Shown: positions 11,603-35,858, counted from the first letter of the stretch. The stretch is DNA of 64,000 bases from Gemmatimonadota bacterium (GCA_040002895.1 JBDUDP010000001.1:58872-122871), one strand, 5' to 3'. The notes: generated by a model not told the origin, from the letters alone. Numbers and translations are program-made.

Positions 11603-13387
11603 ATGCAAAGCACCTCTCTCCGCACCCACCGCGCGGGTTCCCTGACCCCGGCCGAGGTGGGGACGACCGTCCGCCTCGGCGGTTGGGTTCATCGCCGCCG
11701 CGACCTCGGCGGCATCGTTTTTCTCGACCTGCGCGATCGCGACGGACTGGTGCAGCTCTCCTGTGATCCGGCGTGGACGCCTCCCGAGGTGCTCGCGCTC
11801 GGCGCGTCACTCGGGGCGGAGAGCGTGGTGCTCGTCGAGGGCGTCGTGGCGATGCGTCGGGACCCCGCCCCCGATGCCTCGATGCGCTCGCGCGAGATCG
11901 AGGTGCATGTCACGGCGCTCCGCGTGGTCGGTCCTGCCACCACGCCGGCGATTCCCGTGGCCAGACGCGAGGGCGAGGAACTCGCCTCAGAAGAATTGCG
12001 GTTGCAACACCGCGTGCTCGACCTCAGGCGTCCCGAGTTGCAGGCCAACCTGATGTTGCGCCATCGGCTCGCGCAGCGCGCACGCCGGACGCTCTGTGAC
12101 CTGGGCTTTCTCGAGATCGAAACGCCGATCCTGACCAAGCCCACCCCGGAAGGCGCTCGGGACTACCTCGTGCCGTCACGCGTTCACCCGGGCGAGTTCT
12201 ACGCGCTGCCGCAGTCGCCCCAGATGTACAAGCAACTACTGATGATGGCAGGCTTTGATCGCTACTTCCAGATCGCGCGCTGTTTCCGAGACGAGGATCT
12301 GCGCGCCGACCGTCAACCGGAATTCACGCAGATCGACCTCGAGGCGTCGTTCATCAATCAGGAGGACGTGCTCCGGGTCATCGAGGCCATCTTGCGTGAC
12401 CTCTGGGAGGAGGCCGGGTACGCCGTGGCACTTCCGTTCCAGCGGTTGACCCACCGCGAGGCGATGGAGCGGTTCGGGATCGACAAGCCGGACCTTCGCT
12501 ACGGCCACGAGATCGTCGATGTAGGCGCCCTGATCGGCGAGGACGCCGCGCCCTTCGTCCGGGAAGCGTTGGCTGCTGGAGGTCGCGTGCGCGCGATCGT
12601 CGCGCCGGGCCAGGGGACGCTGAGTCGCAAGGAGCTCGACCAGCTGACCGAGCTGGCACGCAGCCAGGGCGCGGGGGGACTCATCTGGGCCAAGCGCGCG
12701 GAGGCCGGCTGGGAGGGACAGGGGGTGAAGGCCCTCGGCGCATCGGCACTCGCGCGGGTCACCGCCAAGGCGGGCGACCTGATCGTGGCCGTGACCGGAA
12801 CCGACGCGGTCACCCATCCGACTCTGCACGCCGTGCGGACGGCGCTGACCCAGCGACCTGAGGTCGCACCGACGTCGGCCCATGCCTTCGCCTGGGTGGT
12901 CGACTTTCCGCTCTTCGAACAGGACACGACTTCCGGGGAATGGGTGTTCACGCATCATCCGTTCACGTCTCCCCATCCAGAAGATCAGGCCGTGCTCGAA
13001 TCCGAGCCCTGGCGTTGCCGTGCCCTGCACTATGATGCGGTCTACAATGGCAATGAACTGGGCAGCGGCTCGATCCGGATCACGGATCCTGCGCTGCAGG
13101 CCACCGTTTTCCGTCTCCTGGGGATCCCCGACGCGGAGCAGCGTGAGCGTTTCGGCTTCCTGCTCGACGCCCTGGCGTCCGGGGCGCCACCGCACGGCGG
13201 TTTTGCCCTCGGATTTGACCGGATCGTCATGCTCCTCGCCGGCGCACCGTCGTTGCGTGACGTGATCGCCTTCCCGAAGACGGCGGGGGCTCGCGCGCTG
13301 TTCGAGGGCGCACCGACGCCGGTTGCGGCAACGGAACTGCTGGCACTGAACCTGCGCACCACCATGGGGCCCGCGAATGAACGCTGA
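11603..13387 (+). CDS. aspS: aspartate--tRNA ligase
   Basis: 594 aa with 'GWVHRRRDLGGIVFLDLRDRDG', 'FYALPQSPQMYKQLLM', 'CFRDEDLRADRQPEFTQID' and 'GGFALGFDRIVMLL'. Confidence 0.95.
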   Translation: MQSTSLRTHRAGSLTPAEVGTTVRLGGWVHRRRDLGGIVFLDLRDRDGLVQLSCDPAWTPPEVLALGASLGAESVVLVEGVVAMRRDPAPDASMRSREIEVHVTALRVVGPATTPAIPVARREGEELASEELRLQHRVLDLRRPELQANLMLRHRLAQRARRTLCDLGFLEIETPILTKPTPEGARDYLVPSRVHPGEFYALPQSPQMYKQLLMMAGFDRYFQIARCFRDEDLRADRQPEFTQIDLEASFINQEDVLRVIEAILRDLWEEAGYAVALPFQRLTHREAMERFGIDKPDLRYGHEIVDVGALIGEDAAPFVREALAAGGRVRAIVAPGQGTLSRKELDQLTELARSQGAGGLIWAKRAEAGWEGQGVKALGASALARVTAKAGDLIVAVTGTDAVTHPTLHAVRTALTQRPEVAPTSAHAFAWVVDFPLFEQDTTSGEWVFTHHPFTSPHPEDQAVLESEPWRCRALHYDAVYNGNELGSGSIRITDPALQATVFRLLGIPDAEQRERFGFLLDALASGAPPHGGFALGFDRIVMLLAGAPSLRDVIAFPKTAGARALFEGAPTPVAATELLALNLRTTMGPANER

Positions 13388-14333
13388 TGATGTCCGACAC
13401 ACGCTGAGTGCGGAAGGCGCTGATCCGCTGCTGCTCGCGGGCGTGAACGACGCGAACTTCGCGGAGATCCAGCGGGCCATCGGCGTCCGGGTGTCACAGC
13501 GCGGGGACATGCTGACCTTGGTGGGTACCGCGGATCAGATCGAGCGTGCCACGCCGGTCATGCAGGGCTTCGTGGACTTGGCGCGCGCTGGCCAGCCCAT
13601 CGAACCCGAGGACGTCTATCGGCTCGCGACCGATGGCCACGTGGCCGATGGTGCGACCGCCACCGATAGTCAGAAGGTGGTGATCCCCGGGATGCGCAAG
13701 GCGATTGTCGCCAAGACACCGGGGCAGCGGGAATATCTCGCACTCATCAACACCCACGACATCGTGATCGGCATCGGACCGGCCGGCACCGGCAAGACCT
13801 ACCTTGCCGTCGCCAAGGCGGTGGAGGCGCTCGCGCGCAAGCGCGTGAAGCGCATCGTGCTGGCCCGACCCGCGGTCGAAGCGGGCGAGTCGCTGGGGTT
13901 CCTCCCCGGCGACCTGCAACAGAAGGTGGATCCCTACCTCCGGCCGCTCTACGACGCGCTGGAGGACATGATGCCGCACGAGAAGGTGTTGAAGGCAATC
14001 GAAACGCGGACTATCGAGATCGCGCCGCTTGCCTATATGCGCGGACGCACGCTTGCCGATGCCTTCATCATTCTCGACGAGGCCCAGAACGCGACCATCG
14101 CGCAGATGAAGATGTTCCTCACGCGACTCGGCGCGAACAGCAAGGTGGTCGTCACGGGTGACAAGACCCAGATCGACCTCCCACGCCGGGAGGAGAGTGG
14201 CTTGGTACAGATCGAGCGTGTGCTGCCAGGGATCGAGGGAATCGGCTTTCACTATCTCACCGATGAAGATGTGGTCCGCCACCGGCTGGTGCGGGACATC
14301 ATTCGTGCCTATGCGGAGGATCAGGCCGGCTGA
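13377..14333 (+). CDS. PhoH family ATPase
   Basis: 318 aa with Walker A 'GPAGTGKTYLAV', 'FIILDEAQN' and 'VVVTGDKTQIDLP'. Confidence 0.92.
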   Translation: MNADDVRHTLSAEGADPLLLAGVNDANFAEIQRAIGVRVSQRGDMLTLVGTADQIERATPVMQGFVDLARAGQPIEPEDVYRLATDGHVADGATATDSQKVVIPGMRKAIVAKTPGQREYLALINTHDIVIGIGPAGTGKTYLAVAKAVEALARKRVKRIVLARPAVEAGESLGFLPGDLQQKVDPYLRPLYDALEDMMPHEKVLKAIETRTIEIAPLAYMRGRTLADAFIILDEAQNATIAQMKMFLTRLGANSKVVVTGDKTQIDLPRREESGLVQIERVLPGIEGIGFHYLTDEDVVRHRLVRDIIRAYAEDQAG

Positions 14334-14764
14334 TGGCGCACTCTGCAGCGACCAATGTGGTGGTGGGCGGGACGGTGGGTCGACTGCCTCGACGCGTCGT
14401 GCGCGATGCCGTGCTCCACGTCCTGCGCGAAGAACGCCGCGAGGCATCGGTGGCCATCACCTTTCTGGGTGTGCGCCGGATGCAGGACATGAATCAGCAG
14501 TACAAGGCGCACGATGAACCGACCGACGTCCTCTCCTTTGCGCTGCCACTCCCCGATGGGCGACTCACGGGTGATATCTACATCTGCCGCTCCATGGCCG
14601 CCCGGGAGGCGCATCAGCGCGCGCTCCCGCTCCGCGAGGAACTGCTCCGGCTCGTGGTCCACGGCACCTTGCATGTGCTCGGATACGATCATCCCGATGG
14701 GGCGACGCGCACCGACTCTCCGATGTGGCAGCGGCAGGAGCGGTACGTGAAGGAGCTGACGTGA
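14333..14764 (+). CDS. ybeY: rRNA maturation endoribonuclease YbeY
   Basis: 143 aa with 'PTDVLSF' and 'HGTLHVLGYDH'. It is in the conserved phoH-ybeY-corC gene order. Confidence 0.92.
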   Translation: MAHSAATNVVVGGTVGRLPRRVVRDAVLHVLREERREASVAITFLGVRRMQDMNQQYKAHDEPTDVLSFALPLPDGRLTGDIYICRSMAAREAHQRALPLREELLRLVVHGTLHVLGYDHPDGATRTDSPMWQRQERYVKELT

Positions 14765-15954
14765 CGGCCCTGCTGCTGGCGCTGCTCCCCACGGTGGCTG
14801 GGCTCATCATGCTCTGGGCGGGACTGGTGGCGCTCGCGGGCGAAGGCGACACGGAACTCGGTGCCCGTGCGCTCGCGCGCGATCCGGGTACCGATGATCT
14901 GCCTCCTGCGCGTATCCTGCACGTCATTCACCTCGCCTCGCTGACCGCCGCCGCCGCGGTGGCCGGAACCGCCGTGGCCTGGTGGGCCTACCCCCCGGCG
15001 ATCGCACTCGTGCGCGTGATGCTGGTCACCGTGCTCGTGTGGACGGTGGGCGACCTCGCGCCGCGCCTGCTGGCGACGCTGGCACCGGAACTGGTGCCGC
15101 ACGCCCGGCAGATCGCGCTTGCCGCGCGCCCCCTGTTCGCGCCCTTGCTCTGGATGGCGGCGCGCCTCGACCGGAGCCGCAGCGATACCTCGCGCCTCGG
15201 CGCACGCCCGGATGGACACTCACCGCAACAAATGGCCCTCGGCGTCTTCTCGCTGGCGGAGATGGGCGTCGCCGAAGTGATGACGCCCCGGCTCGATATC
15301 ATCGCGGTGCAGGTGAGTGAGAGCGAGGCGGAGGTGGTGGCGACCATGCGCCGCAGCGAACACGCTCGCCTGCTGGTGTTCGACGGGCATCCCGACGCGG
15401 TGGTCGGAGTCATTTATGCCAAGGATGTCCTGCCGCGGTTGTTTGCGATCGAAACGCTCCGTGACGCATGGCAGACGCTGATCCGTCCCGCCGCGTTCGT
15501 GCCCACGGGCAAGACGCTGGATCGCCAGCTGCGGGATTTCCAGCGCGGCCCCGGGCATCTCGCCGTCGTGGTGGACGAGTTTGGCGGGACGGCGGGGATC
15601 GTGACGCTCGAAGACATTCTCGAGCAGATCGTGGGCGAAATTCAGGATGAACACGACGTGGATGAGGTCCAGCCATTGCAACGGATCGACGACGGCCATC
15701 TGGTGGTGGAAGGGGGCGTGCCGCTCGCGGACCTCGAAGCGGAACTCGAACACGATTTCGATCGTGAAGACGTCGCCACGGTCGGCGGGCTGGTGCTGGC
15801 CACGCTGGGCCGCGTGCCGCGCAGTGGCGAGAGCATCGAGATCGACGGTTGGCGCGTCGAAGTGGAGTTGGTGGTGCGGCGGCGGATTCGTCGCGTTGCC
15901 TTCTGGCCGGCCGCCCCCGTCGGCCTCGGGCCGAGCAAGGACGGCGACGAATGA
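14761..15954 (+). CDS. CNNM/HlyC-CorC family transporter (DUF21 + CBS pair + CorC_HlyC)
   Basis: GTG 14761 (GTGA overlap). N-terminal TM region, 'VMTPRLDIIAV', 'HLAVVVDEFGGTAGIVTLEDILEQIVGEIQDEHD' and a C-terminal CorC_HlyC-like segment. Confidence 0.85.
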   Translation: MTALLLALLPTVAGLIMLWAGLVALAGEGDTELGARALARDPGTDDLPPARILHVIHLASLTAAAAVAGTAVAWWAYPPAIALVRVMLVTVLVWTVGDLAPRLLATLAPELVPHARQIALAARPLFAPLLWMAARLDRSRSDTSRLGARPDGHSPQQMALGVFSLAEMGVAEVMTPRLDIIAVQVSESEAEVVATMRRSEHARLLVFDGHPDAVVGVIYAKDVLPRLFAIETLRDAWQTLIRPAAFVPTGKTLDRQLRDFQRGPGHLAVVVDEFGGTAGIVTLEDILEQIVGEIQDEHDVDEVQPLQRIDDGHLVVEGGVPLADLEAELEHDFDREDVATVGGLVLATLGRVPRSGESIEIDGWRVEVELVVRRRIRRVAFWPAAPVGLGPSKDGDE

Positions 15955-17141
15955 ACTGGTTCCTGTTGGTGCTTGGACTCGTGATCGCGATCATCGGGTC
16001 GTCGGGTGCCGCGGCCTTGGTCACGACGGCGCGCCGCGCGCTTGCCGAGACGATCTCGCGTCGTCTCCGGGGCGGGGAGGAGTCGCTCGACTGGATCGCG
16101 GCCACTCAACGCGAGGTGGCGGCATCGGCCGCGGCGACTTCCCTCGGCGTCGTGCTCGTGGGCGCGGCAATTCCCGCCCTGTTCGGTCGGCTGTTGTTGC
16201 CCCAGTGGGCACTGATCATCGCGCTGCTGGTGGTCCCGATTACCCTGCTCGGCGGCTACCTGCTGCCGCGTTGGCTCACGGTCCCGCGTGCGGCGCGGAC
16301 GGTGGAGTTCATCGGGCCACTGGTGCGCGCGTGGGGCACCCTGCTCGCGGTGGTGCTTCCAGCACGCGGGTCCGACCGTGCCGATGACGTGCGGGCGCTC
16401 GCCCGTGAGGGCCGCGCCAATGGACTGGACGGTGAGGAGCTGGTCATGGTGGGTGGCGTGATCACCTTCGCCGAGCGTCCGGTGCGCGAGATCATGACGC
16501 CGCGCACTGACGTCATTGCCGTTCCCGCGGATGCGACGCATGCGCAGGTGGTCGCCACCTTCGCCGAATCGGGCTACACCCGGATCCCCGTGTATCGCGG
16601 CACCCTCGACGACATCGCGGGGATGGTCCACGCCTTCGACCTCTTCAAGCAGGATCCCGAGGCGGCATTGCCGGTGCGGTCGGTCTCCTTTGCGCCGGTC
16701 TCCAGACTCGCCGGCGACTTGCTGCTTGATCTTCAGCGAGATCATCGTCACCTGGCCGTCGTGGTTGATGAATTTGGGGGCACGGCAGGCATCGTGACGT
16801 TCGAGGATCTGCTTGAGGGGCTCGTGGGCGAGATTTCCGATGAGGATGATCTTGGCATCCCCGTGGTGGCCGCGGCCGCGGGCACGCTGCTGGAGCTCGA
16901 CGGATCGGAGTCACCGGACAGCGTGGCACAACACTTCGAGGTGACATTGCCCGCTCGCGGTGCGGCCTCGTTTGGCGGCCTGCTCGCGGAACTCGTCGGT
17001 CGGATTCCGGTGACGGGGGAGCGTTTCATGCTCGCGGGACTGGAGATCGACGTGGTGCAGGCATCGCCGACCCATGTGGATCGCCTGCTCGTGCGTCGCG
17101 GCGTTGGCGTCCCGGTGGATCTGGATCGACTGCTCGGATGA
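15951..17141 (+). CDS. CNNM/HlyC-CorC family transporter, second tandem paralogue
   Basis: ATG 15951 (MNWFLLVLGL, ATGA overlap). 'IMTPRTDVIAV', 'HLAVVVDEFGGTAGIVTFEDLLEGLVGEISDEDD'. Confidence 0.85.
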   Translation: MNWFLLVLGLVIAIIGSSGAAALVTTARRALAETISRRLRGGEESLDWIAATQREVAASAAATSLGVVLVGAAIPALFGRLLLPQWALIIALLVVPITLLGGYLLPRWLTVPRAARTVEFIGPLVRAWGTLLAVVLPARGSDRADDVRALAREGRANGLDGEELVMVGGVITFAERPVREIMTPRTDVIAVPADATHAQVVATFAESGYTRIPVYRGTLDDIAGMVHAFDLFKQDPEAALPVRSVSFAPVSRLAGDLLLDLQRDHRHLAVVVDEFGGTAGIVTFEDLLEGLVGEISDEDDLGIPVVAAAAGTLLELDGSESPDSVAQHFEVTLPARGAASFGGLLAELVGRIPVTGERFMLAGLEIDVVQASPTHVDRLLVRRGVGVPVDLDRLLG

Positions 17142-18478
17142 CCTCGGGCCAGGAGGCACGCCTGGAGGAGCTGGTGCTCCTGGTCCGCGAGGGCCGAATC
17201 GAGACCTTCGTGCAGCTGGCCTGGGAGCTGGAACCGATCGACCTCGCCGATGTACTCGCGAGTCTTGACGACGACGAGCGCCTCGAGTTGGTGCGCGTGT
17301 TGCCGGCCGAGCTGTCGTCGCAGGCGCTGGTGGAACTGCCGGCCGATGCGCACGCTGAGGACATCGTGGCGGCGCTGGGTGCGGCACAGGCCGCCGAGAT
17401 CGTGGACGAGCTCGAGGACGACGATGCCGCCGACTTGCTCGGTGAGCTTGATCCCGAACAGCAGGAGCGCATCCTCGCGGGCGTCGAGCGCCGCGGGGAT
17501 GTTGATCGACTGCTGCGCTACGATGACGAGACGGCCGGTGGGCTGATGACCACCCACCTGGTCACGGTGACAGATCTGGACACCGTGGGTCTGGCGTTGG
17601 AGGCGGTTCGGCGACAAGCCGAGGACGTGGATGATGTCACCGAGATTTTCGTGATCGACACGGCGCGACGCCTGGTGGGAACGCTGAGCTTCAAGCTGCT
17701 GGTGGTGATGCCGCAGGTGCGTCTCGTCCGCGAGGTGATGGAGGATGCGGACATTCGCGTCGGGGCGGAGGAGGATCAGGAGGAGGTTGCGCGCATCATG
17801 TCGCGCTACAACATGGTGGCGTTGCCAGTGGTGGATCTGGCCGGTCGACTGCTGGGTCGGGTGACCTACGACGACGTGAGCGATGTGTCCGAGGCCGAGG
17901 CGACTGAGGACCTGCTGCGCTTCGGCGGCGTGTCGCCGGACGAGGAGCTCTCCGCGCGGTGGTCGAGCTCGGTCCGGAGCCGACTCCCCTGGTTGTACGT
18001 GAACCTGCTCACGGCATTTCTTGCCGCCGCCGTCGTCCTCTTCTTCAAGGGCGCCATCACCCGCATCACGACACTGGCCATCTGGATGCCGATCATCGCG
18101 GGGATGGGCGGCAACGCCGGGACCCAGGCCCTGGCCGTCTCGGTACGCCGACTCTCGCTCGGACAGGTGCCGGTGGATCGAAGTCGGTCCATCATCACCA
18201 AGGAGATCCTGGTCGGCATTATCAATGGCATCGCGATCGGGGTCGTGGTGGCGGGGGTGTCGGTGTTGGTTGGTGAAAGCTGGCGGATGGGGCTGGTGGT
18301 CTTCCTCGCGATGAGCGGAAACCTCCTCGTGGCCGGCTTCGCGGGGTCATTCATCCCCGTGCTCCTCGATCGGCTGGAGATCGACCCGGCGGTGGCGTCC
18401 TCGATTTTCGTCACCACCTTCACCGATGTGTGCGGGTTCGGACTGCTGCTCGGGCTGGCCACCGTAATTTTGCTCTAA
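17138..18478 (+). CDS. mgtE: magnesium transporter MgtE
   Basis: 446 aa with an N-terminal MgtE_N acidic helices region, a CBS pair and 'MGGNAGTQ...' in the TM domain. ATGA overlap with the upstream gene. Confidence 0.93.
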   Translation: MTSGQEARLEELVLLVREGRIETFVQLAWELEPIDLADVLASLDDDERLELVRVLPAELSSQALVELPADAHAEDIVAALGAAQAAEIVDELEDDDAADLLGELDPEQQERILAGVERRGDVDRLLRYDDETAGGLMTTHLVTVTDLDTVGLALEAVRRQAEDVDDVTEIFVIDTARRLVGTLSFKLLVVMPQVRLVREVMEDADIRVGAEEDQEEVARIMSRYNMVALPVVDLAGRLLGRVTYDDVSDVSEAEATEDLLRFGGVSPDEELSARWSSSVRSRLPWLYVNLLTAFLAAAVVLFFKGAITRITTLAIWMPIIAGMGGNAGTQALAVSVRRLSLGQVPVDRSRSIITKEILVGIINGIAIGVVVAGVSVLVGESWRMGLVVFLAMSGNLLVAGFAGSFIPVLLDRLEIDPAVASSIFVTTFTDVCGFGLLLGLATVILL

Positions 18479-18504
18479 CTCCTTCAACCGTGGTACGTTC
18501 CGGG

Positions 18505-19541
18505 ATGGCCGACGACTCGCTGCTCGCCCCATTGCTCGACGGAAAAGTGGCCGCGCTCGCCCGCGCGGTGTCGATCGTCGAGAACGGTCGGGCCGGCTTC
18601 GAGGAGCTGCTGGCTGCCATCCATCCGCGGCTGGGGCATGCCCGTCGCATCGGCATTACCGGCCCCCCGGGGGCGGGGAAGTCGACCCTCACCGAACGGC
18701 TGGTGTCCGCCTACCGGGCGTCTGACCTGCGCGTCGCCGTGGTGGCGGTGGACCCCACTTCGCCCTTCAGTGGCGGCGCACTGCTCGGCGACCGCATCCG
18801 GATGGAGCAGATCGCGCTCGATCCCGGCGTCTATATCCGGTCCATGGCGACGCGGGGCTCGCTGGGTGGGCTGGCGACCTCGACGCGCGAGGTCTGTGAC
18901 CTGCTCGATGCAGCGGGTTTCGACCGCATCCTGGTGGAGACCGTGGGTGTCGGGCAGTCGGAGTTGGATGTGGCGCGGATGGCCGACACCACGGTGCTGG
19001 TGCTGGTGCCGGAGTCCGGCGACGGAATTCAGGCGCTCAAGTCGGGCGTGATGGAGGTGGCCGACTGCTTCCTCATCAACAAGGCGGACCGACCCGGCGC
19101 CGACAAGGTACGGCGCGAGGTCGAACTGGCGCTTGACCTGCGGCTGGGCAAGGCGGAGCGTCAGATGCCGGCGCATCACGGGGCGCTGAAGGGGAAGCGG
19201 CAGCCGGCGCGGGACACCGCGGAGCCTGAGGCGGCGCGCTGGCGCGCCCCGGTGCTGACCGGCGTAGCCTCGAAGGGCGAGGGGATCGATGCGCTGATTG
19301 TGGCGCTCGATCGTCACTGGGACTGGATGTCGGCCAGCGGCGAGCTGAAGCGTCGTCGCCGCACGCGCCTCGCCCAGCGCACCCGCGAAGTGGTCGACCG
19401 TGCAACGCAGCGCTGGGTGTGGCAGGAGTCGAATGCCGAACGCGCCATCACGGCGCGTCTCGATGATGTCACCGCCGGGGAATTGAGCCCGTATGCATTG
19501 GCAGCGGAGATTGTTTCCGCGTTGAAGGAAGGAGCTCGCCT

Positions 19542-19545
<4 letters not shown>
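18505..19545 (+). CDS. meaB: MeaB/ArgK-type G-protein chaperone for B12-dependent acyl-CoA mutase
   Basis: Start at ATG 18505 ([11 protein letters not shown]). Contains '[13 protein letters not shown]', '[24 protein letters not shown]' and 'ETVGVGQSE'. Confidence 0.92.
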
Positions 19546-21236
<1,691 letters not shown>

Positions 21237-21251
21237 CAGCGAGGAGTTGTC

Positions 21252-22406
21252 ATGGCCACCATCAAAGCGAGCACCACGGGGCAGGATCTGCTGCGCATGA
21301 AGCCTGGCGCCCACCCGGTGATCACCTGTTATCTCAAAATCGAACCGCGCGATCGTGCGCGCCGCAAGTATCTCGTGAAGGTGAAGAATCGGATCAAGGA
21401 GGTGGAGTACGCCCTCCCGTCGATGGGGTGGTCCAAGGCGCACCAGGATGCCATCAAGCTCGATCTGGCCCTGATGCTCGACTACCTGCGCGACGCGGAT
21501 CGACTTCCGGACACCCAGGGCGTCGGGATCTTCCTCTCGTCCGGTGCCAAGCTGTTCGAAGTGCGCCCGCTTCCTCGCGTGCATCGCTCACGACTCGCGG
21601 TCGATCGGACACCGTTTGTGCGCGAACTGGCGGCCAGCGAGGAGGAGTTCGGGCGGTTGTTCACCGTGACGCTCGATCGTGCCACGGCACTGATCTGGGA
21701 AGTCACGGCATACGAGGCCAAGGTGGTCCGCAAGGTGGCAACCGAGGTGACGCGGGGCGGGCGCTTTCACGCGACAGGTGCGCGCAGCAACGCCACGGGG
21801 GAACATGCCTACCACAATCGCATCCAGAACGAGAAGCGCCAGCACCTCGAAGCCGTGGCGCGGGCCCTGTTCGAACTCGATCGCGCGTCGCCCGGCCATC
21901 AGGTGGTGATCGCCGGTGCCGGCAATGACGCCAGTTCCCTCGAACCGTACCTGCACAATTACGTGGCCGACCGACTGATCGGACTCGCCAAACTCGCGCC
22001 CAAGGATGCGACACCGGAAGCGGTGCACCATCTCACGATGGACGTCCGGGAACACCACGCACGACTCTCGGAATCGCGCCACGTCGAGGAACTCGCCGAG
22101 GGACTCGGTACCGGCTGGGGGGTGAACGGCGTCCGCGCGACACTCAAGGCGCTCTCCCAGGGTCAGGTTCGGTTGCTGCTCGTCCGCGGCGACGCGGCGG
22201 TCAGCGGATTCCGATCGCTCGCGACTGGGCGCCTGTCGACCCTGGCGCGCGATCTCCGGGATGATGGCGAGGTGGTGCCGAGCGTGGACGTGATCGATGA
22301 CGCGATTGAAGAGGCCCTGCGCCAGCGGGTGGCGCTCGATGTGGTCTACGACACCCAGGCGGCGGACGCGGTCGACGGCCTCGCCGGCCTGCTGCGCTTC
22401 AAGTGA
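21252..22406 (+). CDS. eRF1/Pelota-like (bacterial baeRF1-type) protein with GGR in place of GGQ
   Basis: 384 aa. The C-terminus '[22 protein letters not shown]...[11 protein letters not shown]' follows the eRF1/Pelota domain-3 pattern. The middle '[12 protein letters not shown]...[20 protein letters not shown]' parallels the eRF1 'RGGQSAxRFxRxRxE...RKVAE' region. Confidence 0.6.
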
Positions 22407-22416
22407 GGATGCACTG

Positions 22417-22851
22417 ATGATGGCTGCCCCTGACGCGCCACCGCTGTCACGTCCAATCCGCGTGCTGGTGGCCAAGCCCGGCCTCGATGGCCACGACCGT
22501 GGCGCCAAGGTCGTCGCGGCCGCACTGCGCGATGCCGGCATGGAGGTCATCTACACCGGCCTTCACCAGACGCCGGAAATGATCGCGACTGCTGCCGTGC
22601 AGGAAGACGCCGATGTGGTTGGCCTGTCGATTCTCTCGGGGGCGCACATGACGCTCTTTCCCCGGGTGCGCACCCTGCTGGAATCAATGGGTCGGACCGA
22701 CGTGCTCGTCACCGGAGGCGGCATCATTCCTCAGGAGGACATGGATGCCCTGCACGCGCAAGGCATCGGCAAGCTGTTTGGTCCCGGCACGCCGACCGGG
22801 GACCTGGTGACGTACATCCAGGAGTGGGCCCGTATCCACATCCGTTCCTGA
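22417..22851 (+). CDS. acyl-CoA mutase small subunit, cobalamin-binding domain
   Basis: 144 aa from ATG 22417, with GAGGA 8 nt upstream. Contains '[35 protein letters not shown]' (DxHxxG B12 motif), '[11 protein letters not shown]' and '[10 protein letters not shown]'. Confidence 0.9.
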
Positions 22852-22855
22852 GCGC

Positions 22856-24493
22856 GTGATGACGTCGAGTGAATTGCCCTCGCGGGCGACACGCCTGCAA
22901 GCCCTCACCGAGGAGTACCGCACCCTGGCCGCGCACCTGCGCGAGGGGGGCGGGGAGAAACGCGTCGCCAAGATGCACGCCAAGGGGCAGCTCTCGCCGC
23001 GCGAACGGGTGGGCCGCCTGCTCGACGACGACACGCCGTGGTGTGAGCTCGGACTCCTCGTCGCCTACGATCGCTACGACGGCGAGGCGCCATCGGCCGG
23101 GGTGATCACCGGGGTCGGCGTCGTGGCAGGGCGCGATGTGGTCGTGGTGGCGAACGATGCCACGGTCAAGGCGGGCTCCTGGTGGCCGGAGACGATCACC
23201 AAGATTCTCCGGGCGCAGGAAGTCGCCATGCGGCAGCGGATTCCGATCATCTACCTGGTCGACTCCGCCGGAGTGAATCTCCCATATCAAGGGGGCGTCT
23301 TTCCGGGGCAGTACGGTGCTGCGCGCATCTTCTATTACAACTCGCTCATGCGGCGCTACCTCCACGTCCCGCAGATCAGTGCCGTCATGGGCAGTTGCAT
23401 TGCCGGAGGCGCCTATCTGCCCGCACTGTCCGACGTGATCTTCATGGTCGAGGGCACGTCCTTCATGGGGCTCGGCGGCCCGAACCTCGTGAAGGGGGCC
23501 ACCGGACAAACGGTCGACGGCGAGTCGCTGGGCGGGGCACATACCCACACGCGGGTGAGCAACGTGGCGCACTACCGGGCCACCAATGACACCGACTGCC
23601 TGGTGCAGATCCGCGAGTACGTTGGGAGGCTGCCAACCCTTCCCGGCCTCTCGCACGCGCTGGTGGCGAGTCGTCCGCCCAAGACCGATCCGATGGAACT
23701 GTACGAGATTCTGCCCCAGGATCACCGCATGTCCTACGACATGCGGCACGTGCTCGATGCCGTGCTCGATGAGGGACGGCTCGATGAATTTCAACCGGAT
23801 GTCGCGGGCGAGATGTTGTGTGGTCACGCCCGGATCAAGGGGCATCCGGTGGCGGTGATCGCCAATCAACGCGGCATCATCAAGCGCAAGCCCGGGGAAC
23901 GGCCGCGGTTCGGCGGGATCGTCTATGCCGAGAGCGCCGAGAAGGTGGCGTACTTCATTGAGACGGCAAACCGGGAACGGATCCCGATCCTTTTTGTCCA
24001 GGATGTCAGCGGCTTCATGGTGGGGCCCGAGGCCGAGCACGAGGGCATCATTCGCGCCGGTGCACAGTTTGTCGAGGCGATGGCGACGACGGTGGTGCCG
24101 AAACTGGTGCTGACCGTGAACCATGCATCGGGAGCGGGATATTACGCGATGGCCGGGCAGGGATTCGATCCCGACTTCATCCTTTCCTGGCCCACGGGTC
24201 GCATGGCGGTGATGGAGGGCGAAGCCGCCATCATGGCGGTGCATGGCACTGCGCTCCAGAAGGCGCAGCAGGCAAAGGCGGAGCTGGACACCGAGACCCA
24301 GGCCTCCGTCGATGCCATGCGAAGCGATTATGAGGCGCAACTCGATGCGCGCTACGCGGCCGCCCGAGGGTTTGTCGACGCGATCATCACACCGGAGGAG
24401 ACCCGCGATATGCTCGCGTTCCTCCTCCGGGTGACCGCCCACAATCCAGGCCCCCATCTTGGGCCCTTTGTGCTTGATGGCCTGAGGGGATGA
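22856..24493 (+). CDS. acyl-CoA carboxylase carboxyltransferase (beta) subunit, MccB/AtuC-like
   Basis: 545 aa with 'GGGEKRVAKMHAKGQLSPRERV', 'VVVANDATVKAGSWWPETITKILRAQEVA', 'IIYLVDSAGVNLP' and 'VMGSCIAGGAYLPA'. Confidence 0.85.
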   Translation: MMTSSELPSRATRLQALTEEYRTLAAHLREGGGEKRVAKMHAKGQLSPRERVGRLLDDDTPWCELGLLVAYDRYDGEAPSAGVITGVGVVAGRDVVVVANDATVKAGSWWPETITKILRAQEVAMRQRIPIIYLVDSAGVNLPYQGGVFPGQYGAARIFYYNSLMRRYLHVPQISAVMGSCIAGGAYLPALSDVIFMVEGTSFMGLGGPNLVKGATGQTVDGESLGGAHTHTRVSNVAHYRATNDTDCLVQIREYVGRLPTLPGLSHALVASRPPKTDPMELYEILPQDHRMSYDMRHVLDAVLDEGRLDEFQPDVAGEMLCGHARIKGHPVAVIANQRGIIKRKPGERPRFGGIVYAESAEKVAYFIETANRERIPILFVQDVSGFMVGPEAEHEGIIRAGAQFVEAMATTVVPKLVLTVNHASGAGYYAMAGQGFDPDFILSWPTGRMAVMEGEAAIMAVHGTALQKAQQAKAELDTETQASVDAMRSDYEAQLDARYAAARGFVDAIITPEETRDMLAFLLRVTAHNPGPHLGPFVLDGLRG

Positions 24494-27321
24494 CTGCACC
24501 ACGTTGCGCGCTCCCCGCGATGCTGCTGTTCCTTGCGGGCTGCGCGGCGACCACTCCGGCCGCACGACCGGGTCCGGAGCCGGGTCCTGCGGGCCGCGAC
24601 ATGGCACCGCCGAGCGGTCCCGCCACCAACGTTGCGCCCGTGGCCACTGCGACCCGGAGCCTGCCTCCCGCGGAGGCCTTTCGCGCGGGGATGATGCCGC
24701 TCGCGTCGGCGGGGATTCCACGATTCGCCGCCGAGCATCCCACTGAAGACGGCCGCGGAGTCGTCATTGCGATCCTCGATAGCGGAATCGATCCCTCGGT
24801 GCCGGGACTCCAGCTTACCAGCGAGGGACTGCCGAAGCTGCTCGACCTGCGGGACTTCTCCGGTGAGGGCCGTGTCGTACTGCAGCCGTTGGCGCGGCGG
24901 GGCGACACGCTCTTCGTGGCGGGCCATCGGCTGCTCGGTGCGGCACGCGTGGCGGCGATGGCCGACGGCGGCGCATTCTGGGGCGGCGTGCTCGACGAAC
25001 TGCCCCTGGGCGAGCCACCTGCTGCCGATCTCGACGGCAACGGCACGGTGGGGGACTCGCTTCCGCTGGTCGTGATCCGGACTGGATCGGGATGGGCGAT
25101 GTTTGCGGACACCCAGGGCAACGGCACGCTCGCCGACGATCGTCCCATCCGCGACTACGCCGTGGCCCGCGAGACCTTCGGCTGGAGTCTCAGCAATGCC
25201 GCCCCGCCGGTCACGCTGGCCGTGAACCTGGCCGATTCGGCCGGCGCGCCGGTACTCAATCTTTTCTTTGATACCAGCAGTCATGGGACCCATGTTGCCG
25301 GCATCGCAGCCGGTCACGATCTCTACGACGTTCCCGGCTTCGATGGCGTGGCGCCGGGCGCGCGCCTCATCGGTCTCAAGATTGCCAATGATGCCCACGG
25401 CGGCGTGACGGTAACGGGTGCGATGATTCGCGCCCTCGACTACGCCATTCGCTTCGCCCGCGATCGCAACCTTCGCCTGGTCGCAAACCTTTCCTTTGGG
25501 GTGGGCAATACGCCGCAACGGACGGCCCGAATTGACGTCCTGATCGATTCGGTGCTCGCGGCGAATCCCGATGTGGTGATGACGGTCGCCGCAGGGAACG
25601 ACGGACCGGGCCTCGGCACGGTCGGCTTTCCGGGAAGCGCTGCCCGCGTGCTCTCCGTTGGCGCAAGCGAGCCGGGCGTGTTCGATGGGCTTACGGTCGC
25701 CGACGGAGCGGTCGAGGGTGTCGCCCCCTTCTCCAGCCGAGGTGGCACGCGTGCCGCCCCCGATATCATTGCGCCAGGGACGGCGTACTCGACGATTCCG
25801 AATTTCGCGATCGGTGGTGAGCAGGAGAGCGGCACCAGTATGGCCACGCCCTACGCCGCCGGTTTGGTGGCACGACTGCTCTCAGGGTTCGACGCCCACA
25901 CGCGCCCACCGCCCGCGAGCGCGATTGTGCAGGCGTTGCGCGCGGCCGGGCGGTCGCCAGCCGTGGGCGGTCCGCTCGATGCCGGCTGGGGTCTCCCGGA
26001 CCTCACGGCGGCATGGACCTGGATTCGCCGCTCACCCCAGCCGCCGCCGCTCGTGATCGCCGTTGGCGGGCAGGAATCACGCGGGGCCGTGTTCGTTGCC
26101 GCCGCCGCCGGTGAGCGGGCCCGATCGGTGCATGCGTCGGTGCAGCGCCGTGAGGGCGAGGGTCGCCTCGAGCTCGAGCTTCGGCCCACGGAGGCGTGGA
26201 TCCATGCGCCCCTCACCCTCGTGCTGGCACGGGGAGGCGCGGAATTCGAAGTGGCCGTCGCGCTTGCCGCACTCGCGCCGGGGGCGCATACCGGGGCCAT
26301 CGAGCTGCGGATCGCAGGATCTGACTCTCAGCCCATCGCGCGGATTCCGGTCACAGCGATCATCCCGCTCTCGGCCACCGATCGCGTGGCAACACAGTCG
26401 GTGGTGGTGCCTTCGGGTGGCGTGGGTCGGGTGTTCATCCCCGCCGAGCGCGGGCGCGGCATGCAGATCGAGATTGCTACGGCCGTGTCGCTCCCGCAAG
26501 TCACGGCGTCACTCCATGAACCGGGCGGCATGCCGTTTCGCGACGGCGCACAGCTCCCGGCTGGGAGCGGGGATGGCGCCGCCCTGTTCGACATCGGGGC
26601 GGGAGATGTCATGAGCGGACTCTACGAGGTCGACGTGGCGTCGGGACCGTTGGCTGGTTCCTCGGCCATCGTCACCGTGCGCCGCGCACCGCTACTGCTC
26701 GATGCCACCCTCGCGGGCGACACGGTGCGTGTGGTCGCCCAGAGCATCATTGGGACGCCACTCGCTGTGCGGCTGCGGGCCGGGCTCGTGGGGGCAGAGC
26801 GGACCATCGCCGTCCGGAAATCCGGCGACGCCCCGGTGCGGGTCGCGATCGCCGTTCCCGCATGGGCGGCACGGGTACAGGTCGACTCGAGGATGCCCGA
26901 CGAGCAGTGGGATGCCTTCACCGATCTCGGCATGAGCTTCACCGACCGGCATGGTCGCCAGTTCGCAACCTCACCGGTCAACTATCCCTTCGCGCGAGCG
27001 GCCCCACGGCTGCCTCCCGAGCTGATCGGTGATACGCTGGTGGTGGTGTTGTCACCGGCCTTTGCCAAGCGCCTCGAGCGCGTGTGGCAACTCGACTTGC
27101 TGGTGCGTTTCTATGGTGAGCGCGTGGTGGGCCTCGACAATGGCGGTCGACCCGCCGTCACACTCGGCGCCGGCGCGTCGCTGGAACAGCGATTCCACAC
27201 CGGCCCGATGCCGATTGACCTCTCGGGCGGCCTCGTGCCCGTACTCATTGTCCTGGCGCAGGAAGGCGAGGATTCCATCTGGATGCGCGAGCTCGCGCCG
27301 CAGGGAGGCAGGACACCATGA
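24490..27321 (+). CDS. S8 (subtilisin) family serine peptidase lipoprotein, large tripeptidyl-peptidase-II-like form
   Basis: 943 aa with lipobox 'MLLFLAGCA'. Catalytic triad motifs are 'VIAILDSGID' (Asp), 'HGTHVAGIAAG' (His) and 'GTSMATPYAAG' (Ser). ATGA overlaps occur at both ends. Confidence 0.88.
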   Translation: MTAPRCALPAMLLFLAGCAATTPAARPGPEPGPAGRDMAPPSGPATNVAPVATATRSLPPAEAFRAGMMPLASAGIPRFAAEHPTEDGRGVVIAILDSGIDPSVPGLQLTSEGLPKLLDLRDFSGEGRVVLQPLARRGDTLFVAGHRLLGAARVAAMADGGAFWGGVLDELPLGEPPAADLDGNGTVGDSLPLVVIRTGSGWAMFADTQGNGTLADDRPIRDYAVARETFGWSLSNAAPPVTLAVNLADSAGAPVLNLFFDTSSHGTHVAGIAAGHDLYDVPGFDGVAPGARLIGLKIANDAHGGVTVTGAMIRALDYAIRFARDRNLRLVANLSFGVGNTPQRTARIDVLIDSVLAANPDVVMTVAAGNDGPGLGTVGFPGSAARVLSVGASEPGVFDGLTVADGAVEGVAPFSSRGGTRAAPDIIAPGTAYSTIPNFAIGGEQESGTSMATPYAAGLVARLLSGFDAHTRPPPASAIVQALRAAGRSPAVGGPLDAGWGLPDLTAAWTWIRRSPQPPPLVIAVGGQESRGAVFVAAAAGERARSVHASVQRREGEGRLELELRPTEAWIHAPLTLVLARGGAEFEVAVALAALAPGAHTGAIELRIAGSDSQPIARIPVTAIIPLSATDRVATQSVVVPSGGVGRVFIPAERGRGMQIEIATAVSLPQVTASLHEPGGMPFRDGAQLPAGSGDGAALFDIGAGDVMSGLYEVDVASGPLAGSSAIVTVRRAPLLLDATLAGDTVRVVAQSIIGTPLAVRLRAGLVGAERTIAVRKSGDAPVRVAIAVPAWAARVQVDSRMPDEQWDAFTDLGMSFTDRHGRQFATSPVNYPFARAAPRLPPELIGDTLVVVLSPAFAKRLERVWQLDLLVRFYGERVVGLDNGGRPAVTLGAGASLEQRFHTGPMPIDLSGGLVPVLIVLAQEGEDSIWMRELAPQGGRTP

Positions 27322-28694
27322 CGGAAGGGAAGGACACCGTTCGAATTGCCGCAGGGCAGGGGTTCTGGGGCGACTGGTTGGAAGCGCCGGTCCGTCAGGT
27401 GCGAGGCGGGCCGATCGACTATCTCGTGCTCGACTATCTGGCCGAAGTCACCATGTCGATCCTGCAGAAGCAGCGAACCCGCGATCCGGCGGCCGGGTAC
27501 GCCCGTGATTTCGTGACCCTCATGGAACGCATTCTCCCTGATGTGGCGGAGCGTGGCATCAAGGTCATCTCCAATGCCGGCGGCGTGAATCCGCGCGGCT
27601 GTGCCGAGGCGGTTCGTGCGGCGGCAGAACGCGCGGGCGTGGGCGACAAGATTCGCATTGCGTTGGTGACGGGCGACGACATTCTTGATCGACTCGACGA
27701 ACTGACGTCGGCAGGTGAGCCGTTCGCCAACATGGACACAGATCGCCCGTTGAGCGATGTCCGCCCGCAGGTACGCTCCGCCAACGCCTATCTCGGCATG
27801 CAGCCTGTGGTCGACGCGTTGGGCCTCGGCGCGAATGTCGTGATCACCGGGCGGGTGACCGACACCGGCCTCACGCTGGGTCCGCTGGTGCATGAATTTG
27901 GCTGGGCCACTGACGACTGGGACCGTATTGCTGCCGGCACGATCGCGGGGCACATTCTCGAGTGCGGGGCGCAGAGCTCGGGTGGCAATCTCCTGCGCGG
28001 ATGGCGCAACGTGAAGCGACTCGAGGATGTGGGCTTTCCGATTGTCGAGGCCTCACCCGATGGTTCGTTTGTCGTAACCAAGCATGAGGGCACGGGTGGC
28101 GTCGTGAACATCGCCTCGGTGACCGAACAACTGGTGTACGAAATGGGTGACCCGACGACCTACATCACCCCGGACGGCATCGTGGATTTCACGACCATCC
28201 GGCTCAAAGCGCGCGGCAAGCATCGCGTCCGCGTGTCCGGAATCCAGGGTCGGCCGCGGACCGAACTGCTCAAGGTCTCCGTGGCCTACTTCTACGGGTA
28301 CAAGGCCGTGGGCAGTCTGGTGTACTCCTGGCCGGATGCCTTCGAGAAGGCGAAGGCCGCTGATCGGATTCTGCGCAAGCGACTCAAGGCGCTGGGGCTC
28401 TCGTTCGAGCAGATCCTCACCGAGTACGTGGGCGTGGACGCGACGCACGGCCCGCTCGCCGGCGCCCCGTCCCCCGAGATTGCCGAGGTGATGCTGCGGG
28501 TGGGCGTGCGCGGCCCGGACCGCGCGGCCGTCGAGCGATTCACTCGTGAAATCGCGCCGCTGGTGCTCACCGGACCACCGAGCGTGACAGGATTCGCCGG
28601 CGGCCGGCCCGCGGTCGAGGAGATCATCGCCTACTGGCCGGCGTTGGTGGGACGTGACAAGATTGAACCCTTCGTCCGTGTGGAGATGGTCTGA
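27318..28694 (+). CDS. AtuA-like acyclic terpene utilisation family protein (DUF1446)
   Basis: 458 aa with 'VRIAAGQGFWGDW', 'IDYLVLDYLAEVTMSIL', 'NAGGVNP' and 'GHILECGAQSSGGN'. Confidence 0.8.
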   Translation: MTEGKDTVRIAAGQGFWGDWLEAPVRQVRGGPIDYLVLDYLAEVTMSILQKQRTRDPAAGYARDFVTLMERILPDVAERGIKVISNAGGVNPRGCAEAVRAAAERAGVGDKIRIALVTGDDILDRLDELTSAGEPFANMDTDRPLSDVRPQVRSANAYLGMQPVVDALGLGANVVITGRVTDTGLTLGPLVHEFGWATDDWDRIAAGTIAGHILECGAQSSGGNLLRGWRNVKRLEDVGFPIVEASPDGSFVVTKHEGTGGVVNIASVTEQLVYEMGDPTTYITPDGIVDFTTIRLKARGKHRVRVSGIQGRPRTELLKVSVAYFYGYKAVGSLVYSWPDAFEKAKAADRILRKRLKALGLSFEQILTEYVGVDATHGPLAGAPSPEIAEVMLRVGVRGPDRAAVERFTREIAPLVLTGPPSVTGFAGGRPAVEEIIAYWPALVGRDKIEPFVRVEMV

Positions 28695-29047
28695 TGGCCA
28701 CCACGATCCAGTTGCGCCATCTGGCGCATGCGCGTTCCGGCGACAAAGGCGACACCGCCAATGTCGGACTCATCGCACTCGCCCCCGAATTCTATCCTGT
28801 GCTGGTGGAGCAGGTGACCCGCAAGCGCGTCGCTCGCCACTTCAAGGGGATGGTGAGTGGCGTGGAACGCTTCGAGCTGCCGAACCTCCTGGCGCTCAAC
28901 TTCCTGCTCCATGGTGCGCTCGATGGGGGCGGCACCCTCTCACTCAAGACCGATGCCCAGGGAAAGGTCTACTCCACCGCGCTGCTGCGCATGGAGATCG
29001 AGGTGCCGCGCCGCATCGCCAAGCGGGCGCTGGAGATGGCGTCGTGA
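28694..29047 (+). CDS. AtuA C-terminal-like small protein (DUF4387-type partner)
   Basis: 117 aa with 'LRHLAHARSGDKGDTANVGLIA'. TGATG overlap with the DUF1446 gene. In Pseudomonas AtuA this module is, to my recollection, fused to DUF1446. Confidence 0.65.
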   Translation: MATTIQLRHLAHARSGDKGDTANVGLIALAPEFYPVLVEQVTRKRVARHFKGMVSGVERFELPNLLALNFLLHGALDGGGTLSLKTDAQGKVYSTALLRMEIEVPRRIAKRALEMAS

Positions 29048-29799
29048 GCGGCGTCCTCAGTGAACTCAAGGGCGGGGTGCTCACCCTGACGCTTGATCGC
29101 CCCGAGAAGCGGAACGCACTGAATCTCGAGCTGCTGGACGGCCTCGCGGCCGGCCTTGCGCGCGCCGAACTGGAGCCCGAGGTCCGCGTGCTCGTGCTCC
29201 GCGGGGGCGGGAAGGATTTCTGTGCCGGGGCCGACCTCAACGAACTGCTGGCGTCCGCCGACGCATCGCTCGAGGACAACGAGCGCGCCGCGCTCCGACT
29301 GGGCGAAATCTTCCTGACCCTGCGCCAGCTGCCGAAGCCATCCGTGGCGGTCGTGCACGGTCGGGCGCTTGCCGGCGGCGCAGGGTTGGCGACTGCCTGC
29401 GATCTGGTGATCGCCGCGACGTCGGCGACGTTCGGCTATCCCGAGATCGTGCGCGGCTTCGTGCCCGCCATGGTGATGACCATGCTGCGTCGAAGCGTAG
29501 GCGAGAAGCGTGCTTTCGATCTGGTGATCACCGGGCGACACGTCCCGGCGCAGGAGGCCCTCGCGATGGGGTTGGTCTCGCGGGTGGTCGCCGACGAAGG
29601 GTTCGACGCGGTGGTCGGGAGCTTGCTCGAGCAGTTGGCGTCACAAGGGCTCACCGCGCATGCACTCACCAAGCAGCTGTTTACTGAACTCGACGACCGC
29701 AACTTCGGCGAGGGGATCATGCTCGGCGCCCGGGTGAACGCGCTCTCCCGCGCCACGCCGGAATTTCGGGCGGCCATCGCCGCCTTCCTGACCCGATGA
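29044..29799 (+). CDS. enoyl-CoA hydratase/isomerase (crotonase) family protein
   Basis: GTG 29044 (GTGA overlap). Contains 'LTLDRPEKRNALN', 'VLVLRGGGKDFCAGADLNEL' and 'AVVHGRALAGGAGLATACDLVIA'. Confidence 0.88.
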   Translation: MSGVLSELKGGVLTLTLDRPEKRNALNLELLDGLAAGLARAELEPEVRVLVLRGGGKDFCAGADLNELLASADASLEDNERAALRLGEIFLTLRQLPKPSVAVVHGRALAGGAGLATACDLVIAATSATFGYPEIVRGFVPAMVMTMLRRSVGEKRAFDLVITGRHVPAQEALAMGLVSRVVADEGFDAVVGSLLEQLASQGLTAHALTKQLFTELDDRNFGEGIMLGARVNALSRATPEFRAAIAAFLTR

Positions 29800-35462: not shown

Positions 35463-35469
35463 GTTGGGG

Positions 35470-35498
35470 TTGCGGGGCGGGTAGGGTCGGTCTATAAT
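35470..35498 (+). promoter_or_regulatory. candidate sigma-70-type promoter for rplU-rpmA
   Basis: TTGCGG (35470-35475), a 17-nt spacer, then a perfect TATAAT (35493-35498). It lies 42 nt upstream of rplU ATG 35541. Confidence 0.4.
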
Positions 35499-35540
35499 TG
35501 ATGGCTAGGCGTGTGGGATCTCACGGACCAAAAGGGCGCT

Positions 35541-35858
35541 ATGTACGCGATTTTCAAGGCATTGGGGAAGCAGTATCGCGCCGAGACCGGCGCGACACTC
35601 CGCTTGCCCCTGATGGAGAAGAAGGCCGCTGGCGACGTGGTGACATTCGATGAGGTGCTGCTGACCTCCTCGGGTGACACGATCACGGCCGGCGTGCCCA
35701 CCGTTGCTGGCGCCAAGGTGACCGTCGAGGTCGTCGGGCACGGCAAGGAAAAGAAGATCTACGTCTTCAAGTTCAAGCGCCGGAAGAACTATCGGCGGAA
35801 GACCGGACATCGGCAGAAGTACACCGAAGTCCGCATCACTGACGTCCAGCTGGGTTGA
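35541..35858 (+). CDS. rplU: 50S ribosomal protein L21
   Basis: Start at ATG 35541. Contains 'MYAIFKALGKQYRAETG' and 'GKEKKIYVFKFKRRKNYRRKTGHRQKYTEVRI'. Confidence 0.95.
   Translation: MYAIFKALGKQYRAETGATLRLPLMEKKAAGDVVTFDEVLLTSSGDTITAGVPTVAGAKVTVEVVGHGKEKKIYVFKFKRRKNYRRKTGHRQKYTEVRITDVQLG

Follow-up and report, generated by a model that had tools for sequence, protein, structure and literature searches.

A divergent Balon-related protein encoded between the subunit genes of an acyl-CoA mutase in Gemmatimonadales

We analyzed a stretch of DNA of 64,000 nucleotides (nt) from a Gemmatimonadota bacterium (GCA_040002895.1, JBDUDP010000001.1:58872-122871; referred to here as the window) and focused on an open reading frame (ORF) that lies between the genes for the two subunits of a split acyl-CoA mutase. 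The ORF encodes a protein of 384 amino acids (aa; Table 1), referred to here as the window protein. It begins 15 nt after the stop codon of the mutase large-subunit gene (21234-21236), on the same strand, and ends 10 nt before the ATG of the gene for the B12-binding subunit (22417). The first-pass annotation of the window had described this arrangement, and a direct reading of the sequence bears it out, including a Shine-Dalgarno-like GAGGA for the next gene that overlaps the stop codon of the ORF. The peptide strings cited in that annotation are present in the translation, with a Gly-Gly-Arg (GGR) encoded at 21756-21764, and the neighbors that it had called MeaB and a split mutase match the Pfam models for MeaB, MM_CoA_mutase, and the B12-binding domain.

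The ORF, which we call the baeRF gene after the protein family described below, is a real gene under strong purifying selection. Its omega (Nei-Gojobori, against three close orthologues) is 0.03-0.05, a range equal to that of the mutase subunits; the S8 peptidase gene of the same gene string has an omega of ~0.2. Because there are 1197 database homologues and omega is this low, the ORF is well beyond what could arise by chance. When genomes were scanned at one per species, 80 loci were recovered (79 carry the label Gemmatimonadota and one Bacillota); all 80 genomes retain a full-length ORF, and dozens of residues are invariant in the orthologue alignments.

Based on our results, we conclude that the window protein is a divergent bacterial aeRF1-type protein, an offshoot of baeRF_family10 that is closest to Msmeg1130, Rv2629 and Balon. 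Its best Pfam match is baeRF_family10 (PF18854; 34.8 bits, gathering threshold 27.1), and there is a marginal match to baeRF family 2. Two NCBIfam models for hibernation factors, the 'Rv2629 family' (E = 4e-12) and the 'AOC03_06830 family' (E = 4e-9), match weakly but over nearly the full length. An exhaustive search of representative sequences returned 1054 clusters at E<=1e-3, with identity grading from 51% down to 25-28%. These relatives have baeRF_family10 scores of 40-103 bits, and they grade continuously into the core members of the family, which are the most distant relatives found in the search and score 91-103 bits.

The fold of the protein was predicted with an AlphaFold2 model built on 14 orthologues (mean pLDDT 78, falling to ~55 in a loop region at residues 166-190). 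The model has three domains. In a Foldseek search of the Protein Data Bank (PDB), its best match was ribosome-bound Balon Msmeg1130 (8v9j_z, E = 7e-18, TM 0.68/0.72), followed by aRF1, eRF1, the Balon of P. urativorans, and Rv2629; 8rd8, 8rdw and 8v9k were likewise within the top 8. Pelota and Dom34 gave far weaker matches (E about 1e-5, TM 0.23-0.40), well behind Balon and aRF1, and are not the closest fold match. At the level of sequence, querying PDB sequences by phmmer with the window protein alone gave no meaningful match, and profiles were required. A profile of the wider family (alignment A2) matched Balon MSMEG_1130 over its full length (E = 5.9e-31), the best profile-to-sequence match among solved structures, and matched aRF1 with E = 3.6e-22. 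The Pfam and Foldseek matches support the proposal of the first-pass annotation that the protein has a fold of the eRF1/Pelota superfamily. The window protein shares with the Balon family (AOC03_06830 of P. urativorans, Msmeg1130 of M. smegmatis, and Rv2629 of M. tuberculosis) the three-domain aeRF1-like fold and a similar length (~360-400 aa). With aRF1 and eRF1 it shares the fold, the order of the domains, and the C-terminal motifs G..TL.AL..G.V..LLV and LRF.

The window protein is probably non-hydrolytic, as the first-pass annotation had suggested. Neither GGQ nor NIKS is found in the window translation, and neither is conserved in orthologues. In addition, no Gln is conserved in the middle-domain loop, either across the 76 distinct orthologues that we surveyed for motifs or in alignment A2. 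A non-hydrolytic role is supported by these three absences. In contrast to aRF1 and eRF1, the window protein is without GGQ, NIKS, an intact zinc ribbon, and a match to the aRF1 model TIGR03676 (none at E<=0.01 in the NCBIfam search), and therefore it cannot be a stop-codon-dependent peptidyl-tRNA hydrolase.

GGR had been read as GGQ with the catalytic Gln replaced by Arg, and this part of the first-pass annotation did not hold. The second Gly of GGR is variable, the motif at this site being RGGR, RGSR, R-GR, RAMR or RGKR among the 76 orthologues. The conserved pattern is R168-G169-x-R171-[FY]-[HR], separated by a variable-length spacer from G183-E184 and N189-R190; the length of the loop differs from clade to clade. 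In a hidden Markov model alignment to aRF1, the position equivalent to GGQ falls about 5-10 residues downstream of GGR. Similarly, the GG[FW]xG[YS]EE loop of core family-10 proteins aligns at window residues ~177-185, also downstream, and RGGR itself aligns with a basic RKAK-type stretch of those proteins. The variation among orthologues and the two independent alignments (to aRF1 and to core family-10 proteins) rule out GGR as a mutated GGQ. In the Balon family, as in the window protein, GGQ and NIKS are absent and a long loop of non-conserved length replaces the GGQ loop. In contrast, core baeRF_family10 proteins have a short loop, and the family has been described as having a well-conserved Gln in the catalytic loop and possible hydrolase activity (Burroughs and Aravind 2019, PMC6514570).

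The C domain differs from that of the core family in a second way. Core family-10 relatives have an intact CxxC...CPxC zinc ribbon in this domain, intermediate clades retain two Cys, and the window clade has none at the site ([10 protein letters not shown]...DGE). This branch displays a step-wise decay of both the aRF1 zinc ribbon and the catalytic loop. The insert that occupies the site in the window protein aligns with the insert that Msmeg1130 (8v9j_z) has there, which is similarly long and likewise Cys-free, and DSSP assigns strands to residues 319-322 and 328-329 of the AlphaFold2 model (a predicted short beta-hairpin). Judged by these alignments, the insert is a Cys-free remnant of the zinc ribbon of aRF1 and family 10. 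The corresponding insert of Balon is a hairpin that binds EF-Tu (PMC10901736). The N-terminal region of the window protein is conserved and basic (isoelectric point 10.1), and Arg and Asn are conserved in the helix that follows the loop. These two features and the Cys-free insert would fit contacts with RNA and with a GTPase.

The closest proteins with a known role are ribosome hibernation factors. Balon, Msmeg1130 and Rv2629 have been seen by cryo-electron microscopy in the ribosomal A site, where they contact EF-Tu; all three are without GGQ and NIKS, and for Msmeg1130 and Rv2629 inhibition of in vitro translation was shown as well (Helena-Bueno et al., Nature 2024, PMC10901736). Thus, the statement in the first-pass annotation that bacterial homologues have no established role has been out of date since 2024. 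The usual neighbors of Balon genes are RaiA and stress genes (PMC10901736), linkage to HPF has been noted across the baeRF-1 families (PMC6514570), and chimeric HPF genes often adjoin Balon genes (2025 preprint, 10.1101/2025.11.04.686544). The neighborhoods of sister lineages of the window protein match these published contexts. The nearest relatives that are not located between mutase genes (P0124, P0126 and P0128; 41-43% identity) each adjoin a chimeric S30AE(HPF) and cold-shock domain gene (the fusions are at L096:919-1449, L177:3381-3929 and L178:421-969, where L numbers denote loci and contigs and P numbers denote proteins). P0138, which represents a second baeRF type within Gemmatimonadales, is next to genes for DUF4342 and FtsH, and P0281 is next to genes for Usp, CBS, PCMT, and tRNA-editing domain proteins. 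DUF4342 recurs beside relatives (L089, L090 and L096).

The location of the baeRF gene between the mutase genes is unusual, order-wide, and apparently unreported. The large-subunit gene is directly 5' of the baeRF gene in 73 of the 77 informative loci of the species scan (tblastn). The B12-subunit gene is directly 3' in 37 loci and ~700 bp farther in 33 more; the extra gene in these cases encodes a HAD hydrolase of ~250 aa, identified in L049 (7058-7822) and detected in 40 genome loci. The HAD hydrolase marks a clade in which the baeRF protein is 51-56% identical to that of the window and the mutase subunit genes are parted by two unrelated genes. It is also present in L098, L099, L104, L120 and L128, and in L128 it is the only gene between the subunit genes. 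A metagenome search seeded with the mutase large subunit added 38 further contigs with a baeRF gene in this position, including a deep clade in which identity is only 38-45% for the baeRF protein but 73-77% for the mutase. In neighbor-joining trees, most of the proteins encoded between mutase genes form one broad clade, and those of metagenome contigs L104 and L120 branch more basally. This survey of orthologue neighborhoods rules out the possibility, left open in the first-pass annotation, that the placement is an accident of one genome. No paper was found that treats Balon, hibernation factors, or isobutyryl-CoA mutase in Gemmatimonadota, and a mutase is mentioned in neither PMC10901736 nor PMC6514570.

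Neither the slot nor the baeRF gene is faithful to this pairing. In mutase loci 65-72% identical to that of the window, genes other than baeRF occupy the position between the subunit genes. In 23 contigs the occupant is a class-I SAM methyltransferase gene, and other occupants are a CNNM/CorC transporter, an FAD/BBE oxidase, a GalT-like gene, and HAD alone (alternative genes are at L116:4158-4994, L129:6138-6974, L124:2722-4077, L148:1899-3365 and L166:6266-7276). The subunit genes are adjacent in seven contigs, including L111, in which the mutase is 75% identical. Altogether, the mutase loci without a baeRF gene comprise 7 with an empty slot and 20 with other genes. Conversely, the baeRF gene is found without the mutase. 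L023 and L034 have the order MgtE-baeRF-carboxyltransferase, with MeaB and both mutase subunits gone from the locus, and L093 and L094 have the order CorC-CorC-MgtE-ABC1-SulP-baeRF-carboxyltransferase-OMP-S8-ECH (ECH, enoyl-CoA hydratase), again with the mutase genes gone. The baeRF proteins of these loci, and that of L026 described below, are nested within the clade of those encoded between mutase genes, which suggests that the loci lost mutase genes secondarily. Strict two-way co-occurrence of baeRF and mutase genes is not observed. In one further Gemmatimonadales locus (L026:4939-7597), the order is MeaB-baeRF-B12 subunit and only the large subunit is absent.

We think that the arrangement is probably a long-lived, order-wide gene order in Gemmatimonadales and not a sign that the protein serves the mutase. 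The placement is probably not about the mutase because the slot is promiscuous, the gene survives without the mutase, and the nearest relatives are linked to hibernation. By analogy to Msmeg1130, Rv2629 and Balon, we lean, with somewhat better than even confidence, toward the window protein being a divergent Balon-like factor that silences ribosomes at the A site and is co-expressed within a long gene string. Beyond fold and family, we infer every step of the mechanism, including ribosome binding, co-transcription, and the physiological trigger. The tRNA-shaped, three-domain protein would enter the ribosomal A site, with its basic N domain touching the decoding center. The loop of the middle domain and the Arg/Asn-rich helix could contact 23S rRNA near the peptidyl-transferase center, with no hydrolysis of peptidyl-tRNA, and the conserved C domain would face a translational GTPase (EF-Tu). 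Ribosomes might thereby be silenced and protected in starvation or stress, when the gene string is induced (plausibly by starvation).

Several observations weigh against this interpretation. The window protein is only ~15-17% identical to the solved Balon proteins, and it falls far below the NCBIfam equivalog cut-offs (NF052287, NF052288, NF052289), scoring 45.9 bits against 320 and 36.5 against 330. With scores this far below the cut-offs of curated models, none of the tested proteins is its orthologue. One subclade of the proteins encoded between mutase genes is without the entire C-domain insert, and the HP motif of Balon, which published descriptions give without residue numbers, was not located in the window protein. 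The window gene lies in an acyl-CoA mutase and catabolic gene string and not in a recognized stress operon as for Balon; tblastn found no HPF-CSD or DUF4342 genes in the window or in any fetched locus in which the baeRF gene is between mutase genes, and no HPF or RaiA gene is near the baeRF gene there. Lastly, the arrangement persisted while the protein diverged to ~40% identity, and selection for co-expression with the mutase could account for this. The insert-less proteins (L110, L112-L115, L117, L119, L137, L144, L150 and L154-L156) have a longer middle-domain loop. At the position of the lasso loop of Balon, there is a low-confidence loop of 16-30 residues; the bL27 trap of Balon, likewise described without residue numbers, was not identified.

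A second possibility, which we consider unlikely but which fares best among the alternatives, is that the protein is a non-catalytic rescue or quality-control factor like Pelota or Dom34. Such a factor would recognize stalled ribosomes and promote their splitting or recycling, not their storage. The superfamily fold is the same, Pelota and Dom34 structures were recovered by Foldseek, and the baeRF gene shares a co-directional string with YbeY and PhoH, two proteins associated with rRNA and with quality control of ribosomes. Rescue roles have also been proposed for baeRF-1 proteins (PMC6514570). Nevertheless, the structural matches to Pelota are much poorer than those to Balon in both E value and TM, HPF genes adjoin the gene in three sister lineages, and the only bacterial relatives tested experimentally are hibernation factors (PMC10901736).

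It is also conceivable, if improbable, that the protein moonlights as an accessory of the mutase. The first-pass annotation had raised this idea, and we do not favor it. The protein might act in assembly, cofactor loading, or regulation of an isobutyryl-CoA mutase (ICM)-type enzyme, possibly through contact between its C domain and MeaB. Its gene directly follows that of the large subunit in nearly all informative genomes and in the 38 metagenome contigs, the intergenic gaps are tight, the Shine-Dalgarno sequence of the next gene overlaps the baeRF stop codon, and the arrangement has outlasted considerable divergence of the protein. On the other hand, the gene is retained where MeaB and both mutase subunits are missing, and closely related mutase loci (60-75% identity) have unrelated genes or nothing in its place. 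The residues conserved in the protein belong to the aeRF1 framework that faces the ribosome, and MeaB is a GTPase of the SIMIBI class, not a translational GTPase. The flanking genes in the window are the standard set of large subunit, small subunit, and MeaB known from IcmA/IcmB and HcmA/HcmB, and one thing that sets the window apart from those systems is a slot that accepts unrelated genes in its sister lineages. We know of no mutase system with an eRF1-fold component.

A related idea, to which we give little credence, is that the embedding of a ribosome-silencing factor among these genes is functional and ties silencing to branched-chain acyl-CoA catabolism. The factor could be made in fixed proportion to a starvation-induced mutase and carboxylase module, or it could have been adapted in part for contact with MeaB or the mutase, made by its GTPase-facing C domain. 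If so, it would be a metabolic-enzyme-linked regulator with an eRF1 fold, which would be without precedent. As for a selfish or decaying insertion with no present function, lateral transfer has been reported for baeRF-1 genes (PMC6514570), but this explanation is scarcely credible, being effectively refuted by an omega equal to that of the mutase subunits, the intact ORF in every species genome, and the many invariant residues, and no mobile-element genes were seen among the immediate neighbors of the baeRF gene in the loci examined.

If the window protein is a Balon-like silencing factor, Gemmatimonadales, an order abundant in soil, would be added to the lineages likely to use A-site hibernation factors of the Balon type. 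If co-expression with the acyl-CoA gene string is real, it could hint at how these slow growers tie the storage of ribosomes to their metabolism in starvation. The locus also offers a caution about guilt by association: an order-wide place between two enzyme subunits need not mean that a protein belongs to the enzyme.

From PhoH to ECH (13377-29799), the baeRF gene and its neighbors form an uninterrupted series on one strand in which adjacent genes overlap or are separated by gaps of a few bases, with AspRS before the series and RecQ after it. On the basis of this spacing, we infer that the string is co-transcribed. A scan for consensus promoters and terminators between 12 and 31.5 kb gave counts no different from those in shuffled sequence. 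The downstream gene order (carboxyltransferase to ECH) is the same in L001-L004 and in most of the 80 genome loci, and the upstream order (PhoH to MgtE) is the same in L001-L004 and L093.

Table 1. Genes and sequence features in and around the baeRF gene (window coordinates; residue numbers refer to the window protein)
Feature	Position	Strand	Evidence or remarks
PhoH	13377-14333	+	Pfam
YbeY	14333-14764	+	Pfam
CorC/CBS protein, first	14725-15954	+	Pfam
CorC/CBS protein, second	15849-17141	+	Pfam
MgtE	17138-18478	+	Pfam
MeaB G-protein chaperone	18430-19545	+	Pfam MeaB 313 bits, TIGR00750 336 bits; start codon uncertain
Acyl-CoA mutase large subunit	19542-21236	+	PF01642 743 bits
Shine-Dalgarno-like GAGGAG	21241-21246	+	5 nt 5' of baeRF ATG; direct sequence reading
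Balon-like baeRF (family-10-derived) ORF	21252-22406	+	384 aa; translation, Pfam, NCBIfam, AlphaFold2, Foldseek, omega
Domains of the protein, aeRF1-type (three)	residues ~1-120, 121-285, 286-384		
Middle-domain loop and start of next helix	21747-21821	+	residues 166-190; alignments
C-domain insert	22194-22286	+	residues 315-345; Cys-free; alignments, DSSP
Shine-Dalgarno-like GAGGA, for B12 subunit	22405-22409	+	overlaps baeRF TGA; 7 nt before next ATG
Mutase B12-binding small subunit	22417-22851	+	PF02310 89 bits, TIGR00640 172 bits
Carboxyltransferase	22856-24493	+	Pfam
S8 peptidase	24490-27321	+	Pfam
AtuA	27318-28694	+	Pfam
AtuA ferredoxin-like	28694-29047	+	Pfam
Enoyl-CoA hydratase (ECH)	~29041-29799	+	Pfam

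The mutase itself appears to be of the ICM type. In alignments with methylmalonyl-CoA mutase (MCM; the Y89F mutant 5req_A and the human enzyme) and with HcmA (4r3u), the nearest solved structure, the large subunit reads RQ-F-AGF and FVA-Q-HAW, with Phe at the position of MCM Tyr89 and Gln at that of Arg207. We take this pair to be a signature that separates ICM-type from MCM-type enzymes. Together with the carboxyltransferase, AtuA and ECH genes, it suggests metabolism of branched-chain acyl-CoA rather than methylmalonyl-CoA.

The S8 peptidase gene encodes a subtilase of 943 aa and has 4-nt overlaps with the carboxyltransferase gene on one side and AtuA on the other. Its position is kept in most Gemmatimonadales loci, it is fast-evolving (40-67% identity), and it is missing from some loci (e.g., L019-L021, L056 and L061). 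Upstream, a block with AspRS, PhoH, YbeY, two CorC genes and MgtE (11603-18478), on the same strand and with overlapping ends, directly precedes the MeaB and mutase genes. This Mg2+-transport and ribosome-maturation block stays with the baeRF gene in L093 as well, which has no mutase genes at the locus, and translational coupling to an MgtE-like gene (L096:2834-5040) is seen for the gene of the relative P0124. Genes for RNase E/G and ribosomal protein L21 are found ~11 kb downstream (33825-35858). The window as a whole is ordinary chromosomal housekeeping DNA of 67.5% GC, with genes for PanB, PanC, glycerate kinase, and FloA/NfeD.

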